Of a DNA stretch of 64,000 nucleotides, positions 41,296 to 57,155 are shown in pieces. Source of the stretch: an uncultured Candidatus Binatia bacterium (GTDB taxonomy: Bacteria > Desulfobacterota > Binatia > UBA9968 > CAXXLF01). Location of the stretch: positions 1,888,001 to 1,952,000 of the forward strand of contig OZ244621.1 of NCBI GenBank assembly GCA_965218425.1, in the 5' to 3' direction. The notes beneath the pieces were generated by a model. The model saw only the letters and a program-made list of their open reading frames with translations. It was not told where the DNA came from and ran no database searches. The position numbers were made by a program, and so were the translations under genes. Position 1 is the stretch's first letter; each line of letters begins with the position of its first letter.

Positions 41296-41544
41296 GGGGA
41301 TGTTCAGGCACGCCTTCTTGCTATTCTGGGTTTCCTTCTATTTCGGATTCCAACTTGTATTGCACCAATTCTCTATTGGAATGTCCTGTTCATCTGGACG
41401 CGGTGTTCCAAAGCATGGGGTCTTCTCCTCTCAGGTTTCATGGCCCCTACAACCGCCATCCTGCCGGAGCTTGACGCCTTTGTCTTTGTTCAATAACTTT
41501 TGAGAAGGCGAGATGAATCATGTCATGTGTCAAGGTCTGACCCC
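41296..41544. repeat. Array spacer S2 (RAYT 3' end plus IS110 leader)
   Basis: Starts GGGGATGTTCAGGCAC, ends CAAGGTCTGACCCC; core aligns with S4, S9 and S10. Confidence 0.85.
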
Positions 41545-42366
41545 TACATCAAATTCTCGTCGGATCGTCGCGAGTACATCTCCGAAGGTTTCTTTTATCT
41601 TGCCTTTCGAGAAACGAAGCTGGTGAATGCCTGCAATGTTTGAGAAATCTTCCACGCCCTCCTCCAACAAGACAATCGCACGAGAAAACCCAAGGCAACC
41701 CTGAAAAAGCCCTGTTTCATGGACGACGTTCTGTCTAGCGCGATAAATGTTGTCGCCAACGGGGTCATCACACGTTAATACAAGCAAAGCAAACGCGCTC
41801 GTAGACATCATTTTCTGAATAATGTCTCTGATTGTATGTCCCGCACGGGCGCCAGTTTCATATGCCTGCACTGGGTAGCCGTGTTGCTCATGCAAATGGT
41901 CCTTTAGGTCTCTCCATGCTGCGCTATGCCCGTGGCCGATAAAAATAGTCGGAGCGATCTTTTCCTCCTCTTCCACAGGCTCTGGCAACCGCGAATCTAT
42001 AACGTACCTTTCAAATACCTCGAAAACGCTTTCGATTTGTTCTCGACTTGGCGCTGATACGGATACTTGCGTCCCATCTCTGTAGCTATACATGTTCAGA
42101 TGGAGGCTAAACCGACTTCTCGTGTTATTCACAGAGGCAGTCCCCCGTCTAACCATATATGCTCCGGTCGCTTGTCGATAAGCTGAAAGAAACTCGCTCA
42201 GATTTTCATACCCCCAATCCTGATCAGGAAAATACACCTGCAGGACACCTTCATTCGTATCAACCGCTCCACCAGCGGCAGCGATAACATTCTCGAACAC
42301 GGTAATGGCCTCTCGCAGAACGTCGGCACTGAAATGTGTGCGTTGGTACTCCTTTGTCTTGTTCAT
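41530..42366 (-). CDS. TIR-like (Cap12/PycTIR-type) domain protein
   Basis: C-terminal IFIGHGHS...FALLVLT.DD...RARQNVVHETGLFQG.LG motif; N-terminal domain unrecognised. Confidence 0.88.
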   Translation of the reverse strand: MNKTKEYQRTHFSADVLREAITVFENVIAAAGGAVDTNEGVLQVYFPDQDWGYENLSEFLSAYRQATGAYMVRRGTASVNNTRSRFSLHLNMYSYRDGTQVSVSAPSREQIESVFEVFERYVIDSRLPEPVEEEEKIAPTIFIGHGHSAAWRDLKDHLHEQHGYPVQAYETGARAGHTIRDIIQKMMSTSAFALLVLTCDDPVGDNIYRARQNVVHETGLFQGCLGFSRAIVLLEEGVEDFSNIAGIHQLRFSKGKIKETFGDVLATIRREFDVGVRP

Positions 42367-42486
42367 GTCGTCTCCTTTAAATTTGTTCAAAACACATATA
42401 TGCGGCGGTTTGAGGATATGACTCCGATTTCCTGTGCCCGAAATTCACTTAATACATTGATTTAATTTATATCATTTCTAGGGGCC

Positions 42487-42788
42487 GGGGTCAGGTAACA
42501 TGAAAATGGGCATTGTCAGACTAACTGGATAGGACCTGAAAAACCTACAATCGAGGACTCTCAGGATTCGAGTTGACGCCACCCGGCCGGGGCGGTGGCT
42601 CGGTCTTGTTTGAAAATGTCGCTATGACGCAATTCTTTCTCGTCAATGGCATTTACCAGGGCGTATCGCTTGTGATGGTCTAACCCGATGTAAAGCATGG
42701 GGTCTTTTCCTTTCAGGTCAGGTTTGATGGCTGTTACAACCGCCACCCTGCCGGAGCTTGACGCCTTTGTCTTTGTTGCCTGGCCCCC
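42487..42788. repeat. Array spacer S3 with IS110 transposase N-terminal remnant
   Basis: Starts GGGGTCAGGTAACATG, ends GCCTGGCCCCC; minus strand 42698-42633 encodes MLYIGLDHHKRYALVNAIDEKE. Confidence 0.85.
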
Positions 42789-43052
42789 ATTTCAGGTAAT
42801 TTGGAGTGAAGAGTCACGGTGCGGCGGGCCGGGCGTGCCACGGGATTCAATTAAAGCGTGGGGCGGATAGAAGATTTCGGAGGCGGCTGGAAAATCCGGA
42901 AGATGTTATTTGTCAACAAAAGATTTGAACCCTTTATATGGCCCCCTAACAATTGCTTACCGTAATAAAAACTCCTTGACCGCGCCCATGCAGATGTTCT
43001 TAACTGGAAAATAGCGAGTCAATCTTGAGATTAAGCGAGAGGCGCTTGGCTG

Positions 43053-44465
43053 ATGGCTTACTACACACCACCACGGGATCCGGAAGGCACACTGATCGTG
43101 GAGATTCGATCGCCGACCATCACGGAAGTCTTCTTCATTCCCGATGACGAACGTCTTAAGGCGGCAGATATCGACCCGGCTGAAGGCGCAAACCACCGGG
43201 TCCGACTGCTAACATTTAGTGCAGTTGACGGATTGATCACGATCGAACCTAAAAACACGCTTCCCGGACATGCTGACTTTTTGCGGCCCAAATACAGTCA
43301 GATAGAGCGCATTCGCATAGAGAAATCCGGCGGAGCCTTCGATTCTGGCGAAGGCTCGCCGGAAACGGTTGAGGATGTTTGCGAAGCTCTTTCTAACCTT
43401 CCGTCCGCATTTACAAAGAACCCCGATTACGGCTTAGGTCTGGCCAAGGACTACCGCTTCATCATCGATGCGGTTGAAAAGCTGTCGGATTGTACCGTGC
43501 TGGACATCACCAGCGACTGGGAAACGCGGATCGATACTGACGAAGGCGTCTTTTACATATCCGAGCGGGATTTCGACGATCTTCGCAGGACGATCAATAG
43601 CATTACCAATCTTGGACAGACCGCAGCGTCGTCCGTAAAGACGGCCACGGCCCACAACAAGCTTGCGGAAAAAGTCGGTGCGCCGACCATCGAGGTGAAT
43701 TCCGGACGCCATCCAGTGCGCCAGATGATCACGGCTAAAGCAATGGACCGAGAAGTCCTGGAAGAAGATGAGCAGAACGCCGTGATTCATATGCTCTCGC
43801 AGTCGGCGAAAGCGCTGAGCAAAAAGCAGACCGATAAACTCACCAAACTACAAGGCGACATTGAACTCGTTACTCTCGATGCTTTGATCGATCGATTTGA
43901 GGAGATGCTTGGCAAGAAGGTCGCGGAGGATCGTTGGCAAGAGTTTTTCAACGAAAACCCGTTTATTCTGAACATGGCCTTCGGCTATCCCGTCACAAAG
44001 GTTCAGGATCAAGCCTCTGTCGGGGGCCGCAAGCTTTCCGGCGCCGGGGAAAAGATCATTGACTTCCTTGTCAAAAACAGCTTGACAAACAACACTGCTA
44101 TTTTTGAGATCAAAACACCACACACACAAGTATTGAACAAGCTCCCGTTCCGCAACGGAGTCTATACGCCTTCGTCTGATCTGTCTGGTTCTATAAATCA
44201 GGCTCTGGACTACAAGCACCAGTTCCAGAAGCAAGTAGCGGCAATCAAAGACAATTCACAGCTCTACGACATCGAATCCTATGCCGTTCACTGCTGTCTG
44301 ATTATCGGGCAAACGCCGGACGGTGACGATCAGAAGAAATCGTTTGAGCTGTTCCGACGCAATTCCAAAGATGTCGAGATCATCACGTTTGACGAGCTAC
44401 TCGGAAAACTGAAGCAGCTCCGCTCATTCATTGCTGCAGAAGACGGGGATATGTCGGAATGCTGA
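43053..44465 (+). CDS. sduA: Shedu anti-phage nuclease (DUF4263)
   Basis: WQEFFNENPFIL, DFLVKN...IFEIKTP, LSGSINQALDYK, VEIITFDEL. Confidence 0.88.
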   Translation: MAYYTPPRDPEGTLIVEIRSPTITEVFFIPDDERLKAADIDPAEGANHRVRLLTFSAVDGLITIEPKNTLPGHADFLRPKYSQIERIRIEKSGGAFDSGEGSPETVEDVCEALSNLPSAFTKNPDYGLGLAKDYRFIIDAVEKLSDCTVLDITSDWETRIDTDEGVFYISERDFDDLRRTINSITNLGQTAASSVKTATAHNKLAEKVGAPTIEVNSGRHPVRQMITAKAMDREVLEEDEQNAVIHMLSQSAKALSKKQTDKLTKLQGDIELVTLDALIDRFEEMLGKKVAEDRWQEFFNENPFILNMAFGYPVTKVQDQASVGGRKLSGAGEKIIDFLVKNSLTNNTAIFEIKTPHTQVLNKLPFRNGVYTPSSDLSGSINQALDYKHQFQKQVAAIKDNSQLYDIESYAVHCCLIIGQTPDGDDQKKSFELFRRNSKDVEIITFDELLGKLKQLRSFIAAEDGDMSEC

Positions 44466-44523
44466 GTGGATTTTTCGGTGGGGCAGATCAGAACTCTCCA
44501 AACAACCAGGACCAATACGGAAC

Positions 44524-55711: not shown

Positions 55712-56098
55712 CCACTGATCCTCAACAGTCCCAACTGTGTCACTTTCTTGTGTAGATCTGCTCCTGCAAAGTTCTCCATTGGATGATCTCCTTTCCTGCT
55801 ACTGGACTTGTCGTGTACAATACGACAAAACCTCGACCGAGGACCATTCCGTTTATGGGATCAATTAATGCGTCGATTAATTGCATCTTGTAATGATTGA
55901 CAACCTTTTCCCATGTGATAATGGTACCTTAGTAATAAGACAATAAGAGTCACCTCCAGCATTGAGAAGGTTTCTAGTGCAAGTGAGCCTCAACCAAAGA
56001 AGTGGGCTGACCAGTGGCTCTTTCGGGAATTCTTGGGTTCGTGTTGACCGCTCCTCAAATGCAGATTCCTATCATTTTCAAGCACGGAGGGACCTATC

Positions 56099-56671
56099 AT
56101 GGCTACATTCTCAATTCATCCGGACGTCGACAATGGCCTGAAGCCTGCCGGCCCCGACTTCGCCGGGGGCACTCTCAACTGTCATTGCTCCAGTGACAAG
56201 GTATCCGTCTCGATATCCGCGCAATGTGCCCACAACCATGTGTGCGGCTGCACCAAGTGCTGGAAACCGGAGGGCGCCCTGTTCTCGCAGATCTCCGTCG
56301 TCCCGCGCGAGAGCCTCAGTGTGACGGCCAACGAGGACAAGCTCCAGATCGTAGACAAGAACGTCGCCATTCACCGATATGCATGCAAGGGTTGCGGCGT
56401 GCACATGTATGGGCGCATCGAGAACAAGGACCACCCGCTCTACGGCCTCGATTTCATTCACACGGAGCTATCCGACGACGAAGGCTGGGCGCCGGCCGAG
56501 TTCGCCGCCTTCGTGTCGTCCATCATCGAGTCGGGCACCAACCCGAACGACATGGACGCCATACGCGCCAGGATCAGGGAACTCGGCCTCGAGCCGTACG
56601 ACTGCCTCTCGCCGCCGATCATGGATCTAATCGCGACTCACACCGCCAAGGCGTCGGGCTTGCTAAGCTGA
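56099..56671 (+). CDS. gfa: S-(hydroxymethyl)glutathione synthase (glutathione-dependent formaldehyde-activating enzyme)
   Basis: [41 protein letters not shown]. Confidence 0.95.
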
Positions 56672-56753
56672 CGGATGAAGGTCAGGACCCATCCCTGAGT
56701 TGCCAATCACCAAAGGGGCTCAAGTGCCCCTCCACCCGATTCTAAGGAGTTAA

Positions 56754-56868
56754 AGAGGCGCTGGTCTTACTTTATCCGTATGGTGTACGAAACAGATCCT
56801 CTTATCTGTCCCATGCGTCACGGGGAGATGCGGATTATCAGCTTTATTGGCCAGCCCGAAGTCATTAT
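56754..56868 (+). mobile_element. IS91-like (Y2) transposase C-terminal remnant
   Basis: RRWSYFIRMVYETDPLICPMRHGEMRIISFIGQPEVI resembles W..LI.KVYE.DPL.CP.C.GEMRII.FI. Confidence 0.7.
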
Positions 56869-56955
56869 TCACGCCAAATGCGCTTAATTAGCTCTTTAAA
56901 TTAATCCTGGCGGTCCAACCCTAAGCAAACCCAGGCCCAGAGCGGCTTTGAGGGT

Positions 56956-57155
56956 TGTGTCAGACTTGCCTTCTTGCTGTTCCAGGTTTCCTTCCCTTTC
57001 GGATTCCGGCTTGTATTATACCAGTTCTCTCTTGGAATGTCCTGTCCACTTGGGCGCGGTCCACCAAGGCATGGGGTCTTCTCCTTTCAGGTTTGATGGC
57101 CGCTACAACCGCCGTCCTGCTGGAGCTTGACCCCTTTTTCATGTTGCCTGACCCC
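56956..57155. repeat. Array spacer S10
   Basis: Starts TGTGTCAGACTTGCCTTC, ends GTTGCCTGACCCC. Confidence 0.9.

Follow-up and report, generated by a model that had tools for sequence, protein, structure and literature searches.

A predicted RNA-guided IS1111-type element at TIRYT terminal repeats and the probable passive spread of its left end in a Candidatus Binatia genome

The 64,000-nt window considered here (contig OZ244621.1, positions 1,888,001 to 1,952,000, of the uncultured Candidatus Binatia assembly GCA_965218425.1) contains between positions 41,300 and 57,155 a series of genes separated by repeat-bearing spacers (Table 1). Eight of these spacers carry the left end of an insertion sequence (IS) of the IS1111 type (IS110 family): seven copies lie between 41410 and 57155, together with a deleted form. 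The motif which usually heads them, GGGGTCAGG, is the target of the IS and is the terminal repeat of TIRYT transposase genes (TnpA-Y1 subclass 2.1). The initial annotation had described an ~85-bp segment recurring in these spacers, and it is indeed found there at levels far above chance (blastn E 1e-20 to 1e-40). Its amplification, however, is not specific to the window. A search of the single-contig genome (C1 in the coordinates below) matched the repeat at 46 places, 40 of them over at least 55 nt; 34 of these 40 copies are located within six islands, the other six being solitary. The same repeat was present in two of 40 relatives searched, both of the same family, and the database records bearing the same recombinase stub are those of Candidatus Binatia. 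Since three of the window copies (53394, 55339 and 57066) are reproduced piecewise and without differences in public-run contigs from three studies, the copies are no assembly artefact. The joints between copies have short sides in those contigs and were not used as evidence of rearrangement.

The copies are less uniform than first described. Four of them had been reported to run from an ATG into the N-terminus of an IS110 recombinase. These stubs are IS110-derived, yet the one at 47656 is frameshifted, that at 53394 has a stop at codon 3, and the deleted form (50328–50413) has AAG where the ATG is expected, leaving 42787, with its 21 IS codons, as the only window copy with an open frame from the ATG. 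Four others were thought to be joined directly to the transposase block, but three of these (44722, 55428 and 57155) carry IS codons ~142–150 after the ATG. Nor does the same motif-headed segment occur in all copies, since 41410 lacks both motif and head and has the end of a second TIRYT family (H) in their place. Of 37 ATGs examined genome-wide, a single one opens into a long frame: the IS-derived ATG at 55345, which over 54044–55345 (minus strand) is in frame with a cupin gene and could add 73 residues to it. As this proportion is compatible with chance, a role of the ATG in translational fusion was rejected. A promoter scan gave no excess (4 found vs 2.7 expected).

The genomic stubs keep just the first 20–60 codons of the recombinase. 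The longest, of 60 codons, gives only a weak DEDD_Tnp_IS110 match (E 0.005) and is 78–82% identical to the N-termini of its closest relatives, full-length examples of which (including those at loci L062 and L056) match both IS110 Pfam domains, DEDD (PF01548) and C-terminal (PF02371). The peptide is therefore IS110-like, as first proposed. Searches with the 60-codon stub retrieved relatives from genome contigs (nine loci) and metagenome contigs (35 loci), several of them complete elements of ~1.27–1.41 kb encoding recombinases of 351–355 amino acids, and a protein search returned 234 relatives at E 1e-100 or better. The structurally solved relatives are ISCro4 and IS621 only, both distant. In the intact relatives homology begins at the GG before TAACATG, and the motif GGGGTCAGG thus lies outside the IS. 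A second GGGGTCAA within the segment was considered as another TIRYT repeat and rejected, being part of the sub-terminal repeat of the IS. An interrupted sub-terminal inverted repeat (8 + 6 bp) is present, separated from either end of the element by 5 nt and the GG core, a spacing which departs from that given for the IS1111 group in the available text of PMC11187229, namely repeats of 11–13 bp at distances of 7 bp (left end) and 3 bp (right end). When the ends of L062, L056 and L078 are joined in silico they yield TTGACA or TTGACG, 17 nt and TAACAT, a predicted junction promoter of the type described, in the part of PMC11208160 consulted, across the circle junction of the IS110 family. Downstream of the gene the intact relatives have a non-coding right end of 150–270 nt with target and donor words, and a long non-coding end on the right is the IS1111 layout (PMC11187229, PMC11208160, as far as their text was available). 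It follows from this layout that the amplified 5′ piece is devoid of a guide RNA.

The initial annotation had looked to an intact IS110 within the genome for the ends and guide RNA. No cognate is present, and both were defined instead from the metagenome relatives. The genome contains no intact cognate IS, no right end, no guide region and no recombinase sequence beyond codon 60. Its only full IS110, present in two copies, was rejected as a helper, being 22% identical over the aligned part and having other flanks. Intact cognates were likewise not found in the relatives G001–G004 or in G302 (which holds stubs of 93–125 codons), nor in viral contigs; searches of G001 and G002 for a right end or guide region were negative as well. 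The plasmid search gave no intact cognate and one weak 118-nt match. Two wider searches, each run without a positive control, recovered neither an intact cognate in 301 genomes of the class (E 1e-60) nor the guide word in 401 genomes of the phylum. In two unrelated contigs (L085:509–800 and L047:2501–2830) another TIRYT-type motif likewise truncates the IS, in the case of L047 as a back-to-back palindromic pair; this suggests that truncation of the IS by TIRYT ends recurs.

The supposed RAYT block represents the 3′ end of a TIRYT gene, which encodes a Y1 transposase carrying a C-terminal DnaA-like helix-turn-helix. TIRYTs are described, in the accessible portions of PMC3733652 and PMC6006769, as genes flanked by inverted repeats with the consensus GGGGWSAS, and two intact ones with flanking repeats of this type occur in the genome, at C1:2583267–2584241 (a relative of the family C blocks) and C1:1404083–1405018 (family H). 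A word differing from GGGGTCAG by at most one base is present at 25 of the 26 ends of 13 TIRYT loci, which come from four genomes; another two loci yielded no frame and stand outside the 13. Assignment to a RAYT/REPtron, a gene flanked by GTAG-tagged REP (repetitive extragenic palindromic) hairpins, was rejected, both gene ends carrying the GGGGTCAG-type inverted repeat instead. The target itself is one of these TIRYT repeats; it is neither a REP nor an attC site, which the initial annotation had named as targets of several IS110/IS1111 elements. Over its 3′ two thirds, the intact TIRYT-C (C1:2583238–2584308) is 99% identical to a sequence in another genus (G002:C1:1257339–1258008), pointing to a probable recent transfer. 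In stretches L107–L117 of G001 a group II intron (Rfam RF02005/RF00029, with a 460-aa frame) occurs at six places (e.g. L109:11748–13730); TGACC or TGATC, the TIRYT motif in reverse, closes the 5′ exon at five of them, and one of the six copies splits an IS left end. This intron is a second RNA-guided parasite of TIRYT ends.

The IS relatives indicate how the motif would be recognized. Twenty-nine distinct left junctions were surveyed, one of which belongs to the family of this genome, and their flanks fall into two clades, one reading GGGTCAGG and a sister clade reading CTAGCAGG. Outside this family five of six flanks of the first clade read GGGTCAGG, the remaining one being off at two bases, and 17 of 22 flanks of the sister clade read CTAGCAGG, with five near matches. 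The sister-clade target, as in L057, L059, L068, L076 and others, holds a TAG triplet. Nine distinct elements have their guide on the same contig as their left flank; the guide matches that flank at 8/8 bases in eight of them and at 6/8 in the ninth. The guide word is GGGTCAGG in three and CTAGCAGG in six, agreeing in each case with the flank of the element's own clade. The predicted target of L078 (left arm GGGTCAGG, right arm CTTGCA) agrees at 13 of 14 bases with the consensus of 51 TIRYT-C ends of this genome, these ends having been picked by their first seven bases, so that the right-arm match alone is independent of the choice. The figures for L062 and L056 are 11/14 and 10/14, and sister-clade targets reach 5 and 6 of 14. 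By this comparison the guide RNA of the intact relatives is predicted to read the TIRYT terminal repeat, and the match between target guide and motif which the first reading anticipated is thus found.

Twelve aligned guide regions give a stem with an internal loop whose 3′ arm is the target word. The 5′ arm, complementary to the right flank, lies within the last codons of the recombinase gene, as does the outer stem of the target loop. This second arm matches its own right flank at 40 of 56 bases over eight elements, a total reached by 448 of 40320 permutations; since the elements are related and three registers were allowed, the figure is supportive and gives no clean probability. Both arms differ in the sister clade, the target of which is another. 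In a second domain of the guide RNA the left end of the IS is represented by its complement and the right end by a copy. For the structure of 24 pairs, 98.6% of cells are paired in the 12 sequences against 37–48% in slid controls, and two pairs are changed on both sides; the structure was drawn from the same 12 sequences on which it was scored, a circumstance that biases the comparison in its favour. The top-strand target match stands 5′ of the bottom-strand match, which is the IS1111 order in the available text of PMC11187229. Rfam gave no match to the guide RNA. A first hand-drawn structure was discarded as out of register and no better than the controls, and RNAalifold applied to the region after the stop codon mispaired the loop because the outer stem lies in the gene.

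The arrangement of the copies records how the units arose. In 24 of the 40 the order is motif, IS left end, TIRYT-C 3′ end, always in one orientation, which is the order expected had the IS entered a TIRYT-C element at its left repeat and the middle part later been lost. Sixteen of these 24 share the same linker of IS codons 139–150; the linker aligns to these codons with scores of 30–40 in three relatives, the best of 500 codon shuffles reaching 27. The same two-step deletion is common to 16/40 copies. The “direct” joins represent a deletion between two copies of CCATGCTTT. Codons beyond 21 are kept in five copies and seven continue into other repeated modules; these differing lengths and continuations imply that a longer ancestor gave rise to several deletion products. 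A tree (37 rows, 145 columns), from which copies lacking the 20-codon stub were left out, has 29 stubs from three genomes as one side of a branch (support 96/83), with a star inside it.

Which enzyme made the junctions may be judged from their boundaries. Alternative alleles were found for 24 flank groups in a catalogue of 135 ends, drawn from this genome and from 14 stretches of G001 and G002. In 17 of these groups the shared sequence stops 3–8 nt outside the motif (4/8 IS-bearing, 5/8 family C and 8/8 family H), two of the 17 sharing one flank family. In 15 of the 17 the alternative allele has 4–5 mismatches to the motif, and the other two carry another end type. For the copy at 53394, the flank of which is duplicated at C1:1179702–1180330, the alleles part exactly before 53389 and the uninterrupted allele lacks the motif. 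The outer pentamers, most commonly AAACC and GGGCC, are the same in IS-bearing and plain C ends. Junctions made by the recombinase should part at the GG core and leave a target-bearing empty allele. In most groups neither is seen, and the genome has no right end, guide region or later part of the recombinase; the junctions are therefore of the TIRYT type and the IS piece is a passenger. As placed by the empty alleles, the TIRYT end appears to lie ~5 nt outside GGGG.

The same flank is found with different partners across the unit, both within the genome and between genomes, and some units are near-identical between G001 and G002. Pairwise difference among 25 complete stubs is 11%, with 66 of 143 sites invariant and 22 having common second alleles, most of which recur in the copies of two other genomes. 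These alleles are unlinked (mean r2 0.046 vs 0.043 under free shuffling), all four allele pairs occurring in 21 of 30 site pairs within 10 nt. For the TIRYT block r2 is 0.029 vs 0.025, with some linkage only within 3 nt. Heavy short-patch conversion and recurrent mutation at a few sites could each account for this. A polishing artefact was rejected as the cause of the mosaic alleles, the same private variants being found in public contigs and in two other assemblies. An ordinary 1.27-kb repeat family of the genome is 99.7–100% identical over 22 matches.

We consider it probable that a single RNA-guided insertion was followed by deletion and then by passive spread, through joining of TIRYT ends and recombination among the repeats. 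This agrees with one of two proposals made at the outset, that an IS110 targeted the transposase end once and was then copied passively, and it draws on the guide match, the single clade of stubs and the shared deletions. On comparison with relatives, an IS1111-type element would have inserted at the GG core of the TIRYT-C left repeat in an orientation fixed by its guide. Judging from the shared junctions, deletions at short repeated words would then have eliminated most of the recombinase gene and most of the TIRYT gene, together with the guide RNA and the right end of the IS, giving units of 200–280 nt which begin and end in TIRYT ends. The observed boundaries suggest that these ends were joined singly to new DNA ~5 nt outside GGGG, the probable agent being a TIRYT HUH transposase supplied in trans, whereby genes would be truncated and cargo pulled into the islands. 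Finally, homologous exchange and conversion among 40–50 units may have swapped flanks and mixed alleles, the pattern being observed and its cause presumed. At every step the IS piece would be a passenger.

Several observations weigh against this account. The intact TIRYT-C is ~77–85% identical to most of the repeat blocks and is therefore not their direct parent, and no full intact TIRYT-C copy was found in G001 or G002. The accessible parts of the papers naming TIRYT (PMC3733652, PMC6006769) report no DNA cutting or joining by it. Seven of the 24 flank groups fall outside the 3–8-nt interval: four part 10–21 nt out (tandem repeats, deletions or divergence) and three share sequence through the motif, both alleles having the end in one, the shared flank being the end of a group II intron in another, and the other allele running on into a different transposase gene in the third. 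No unit among the 24 groups has both flanks contiguous in one empty allele, which leaves transposition of whole units unsupported; the ends seem to have been joined singly or later separated by recombination. The stub tree rests on its 145 columns, and only three complete GGGTCAGG-clade elements were found, none of them, on their short contigs, beside a visible TIRYT gene.

A bolder version of this account is possible, though we think it doubtful: TIRYT ends may form an active, hitherto undescribed gene-capture system in which single ends are cut 5 nt outside GGGGTCAG and joined to new DNA, and in which nicks drive very short-patch exchange, mixing alleles and shuffling defence cargo within and between genomes of the family, the ends being so stable a landmark that two RNA-guided parasites (the IS1111-type clade and the G001 group II intron) have become programmed to them. 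One might also suppose that selection retains the units as homology anchors or portable promoters, that RecA-type exchange shuffles the defence cargo and that TIRYT had a part only in early seeding. The concentration of 34/40 copies in six islands, the flank swaps across units, the near-identical units common to G001 and G002, the unlinked alleles and a stub with promoter-like spacing, a ribosome-binding site and an ATG would all fit. We nevertheless regard it as unlikely, for mutations are frequent in the −10-like words (of 38 ends, 26 keep the first intact and 10 the second), only the one ATG in 37 enters a long downstream frame, and purging elsewhere would also leave the copies clustered in dispensable islands.

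Many independent insertions of the IS into TIRYT ends, each copy decaying separately, would explain the four copies with different flanks in G302, the 11% pairwise difference with its star-like tree and the existence of at least two deletion types. That every right end is missing, that 16/40 copies share a two-step deletion, that the stubs are one clade and that the outer pentamer is that of the TIRYT-C ends make such a history improbable. Still less credible is the other proposal of the initial annotation, that an IS110-family recombinase, since lost or supplied in trans, assembled or shuffled the array. The guide does match the motif, and the genome has 51 intact target-like C ends and 38 left junctions; moreover, direct strand transfer by related enzymes (10.1101/2025.10.25.684509), modular circles (PMC12288879) and activity with the donor loop alone (PMC13626964) are known from the parts of these reports available. 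According to the same portion of PMC13626964, however, excision requires a left and a right junction, and the genome has no right junction, nor any cognate recombinase or guide RNA, its sole intact IS110 being the distant one described above. With the junctions outside the motif instead of at the core, and with empty alleles that lack the target, assembly by the recombinase is largely refuted.

The genes lying between the copies (Table 1) are presumably the cargo of the single-end joining preferred here. They are accompanied by a cupin gene, a truncated SNase gene and a GFA enzyme. The ankyrin-repeat protein (50842–52479, minus strand) has 13–14 repeats of 102 nt, with fewer in its paralogue near C1:1681150. 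The island opens with a type I restriction-modification operon (hsdR, hsdM, hsdS; 34600–40614), before which stands a copy of repeat module E, and the NYN and TctC-type genes at 32469–34611 of the window are duplicated at C1:2467877–2470018 (98.5%) with repeat modules at both ends.

Table 1. Repeat copies, transposase ends and cargo genes between positions 41,300 and 57,155 of the window
Feature	Coordinates	Strand	Remark
3′ end of TIRYT gene (family C), degenerate terminal repeat at 41300-41308	41300..41404	-	Homologous to intact TIRYT C1:2583267-2584241
IS1111-type left end without head, with ribosome-binding site and ATG, joined to TIRYT-C block	41410..41484	-	
Terminal repeat and 3′ end of second TIRYT family (H)	41490..41544	-	Repeat matches intact TIRYT C1:1404083-1405018
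Cargo: TIR-domain (CAP12/Pycsar-type) protein	41533..42369	-	
Head only: motif and first bases of IS left end, 24 nt, facing next copy	42487..42510	+	
Motif, IS left end, 21 recombinase codons	42635..42787	-	Uninterrupted outer-flank alleles part 6 nt outside motif
Cargo: Shedu SduA-type nuclease	43053..44465	+	
Composite unit: motif, IS left end, ATG, IS codons ~142-150, TIRYT-C 3′ end, terminal repeat	44525..44722	-	IS part 44634-44722
Cargo: HNH protein and Mrr N-terminal-domain protein	44800..46988	-	
Motif and IS left end leading into a frameshifted stub of 20 codons; unrelated repeated modules D/E follow	47387..47656	-	IS part 47520-47656
TIRYT-C 3′ end and terminal repeat, no IS piece	48786..48926	-	
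Cargo: EEP nuclease/phosphatase and ankyrin-repeat protein	49212..52479	-	~91% identical copy C1:1681150-1683975
Deleted form: motif and head, most of left end gone, start codon lost, 20-codon stub	50328..50413	+	
Cargo segment duplicated at C1:1179702-1180330 (97%)	52761..53388	-	Ends at TIRYT-type junction
5-nt TIRYT end extension (53389-53393), motif (53394-53402), IS left end, 52-codon stub	53389..53632	+	Stop at codon 3
Composite unit of 44525 type; ATG in frame with cupin gene	55229..55428	-	IS part 55339-55428; outer end abuts 5′-truncated SNase gene
Composite unit of 44525 type	56956..57155	-	IS part 57066-57155; left flank common with copy C1:1560971, right flank different

Miniature inverted-repeat transposable elements (MITEs) are non-autonomous deletion derivatives, short, non-coding and bounded by the terminal repeats of an autonomous partner. 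The units described here are likewise short, non-coding and bounded by the terminal repeats of a partner, but no target duplication or paired empty site was found, the ends behave separately, the copies are mosaic, and among the 24 flank groups, from this genome and the 14 stretches of two relatives, there were no reciprocal halves. Unlike an integron-like cassette array, the units face both ways, truncate genes and cross over outside the motif, and their cognate recombinase is absent. The intact relatives resemble the IS1111 elements with a right-end seekRNA or bridge RNA, as described in the available text of PMC11187229 and PMC11208160, in their DEDD recombinase of 351–355 amino acids, short left end, long guide-bearing right end, arm order, predicted junction promoter and natural reprogramming between sister clades; sub-terminal inverted repeats occur in both, at different spacings. 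They differ in having a TIRYT-repeat target and in that the outer stem of the target loop and the 5′ arm lie within the recombinase gene, while this genome keeps dead left ends only. As regards the TIRtrons/TIRYT of PMC3733652 and PMC6006769, again from the text accessible, the Y1 domain with DnaA-like helix-turn-helix, the GGGGWSAS inverted repeats at both gene ends and the dispersed families of repeats are shared. The boundary ~5 nt outside GGGG placed here is not, nor is the composite nature of the repeats, with their IS and other debris.

That IS110-family elements home to the ends or repeats of other mobile systems is already known, and from the sources as far as available the targets include the terminal repeats of Tn21 (IS4321/IS5075) and of IS1384 (IS1383), REPs (IS621/ISPa11/ISPpu9) and attC sites (ISKpn4/ISPst6). 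The present case is alike in this respect; it is unlike them in that the host is an HUH/Y1 TIRYT and that the truncated junction has been amplified ~40-fold. A TIRYT-programmed IS clade is the new part: we found no description of one in the literature searched, which lay outside ISfinder, figure logos and most subscription papers, and the left-end word of the clade was not found in the searchable supplements of PMC11187229 and PMC11208160, some files of which were incomplete or unreadable and the figure logos of which are unsearchable. No new recombinase-built array is revealed. What emerges is a pair of clades reprogrammed in nature, their guides, ends and targets being predicted, and a putative sequence-level boundary of the TIRYT end, ~5 nt outside GGGG, which makes the cleavage site directly testable. 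TIRYT terminal repeats would thereby represent a new natural target class for RNA-guided recombinases of the IS1111 type.

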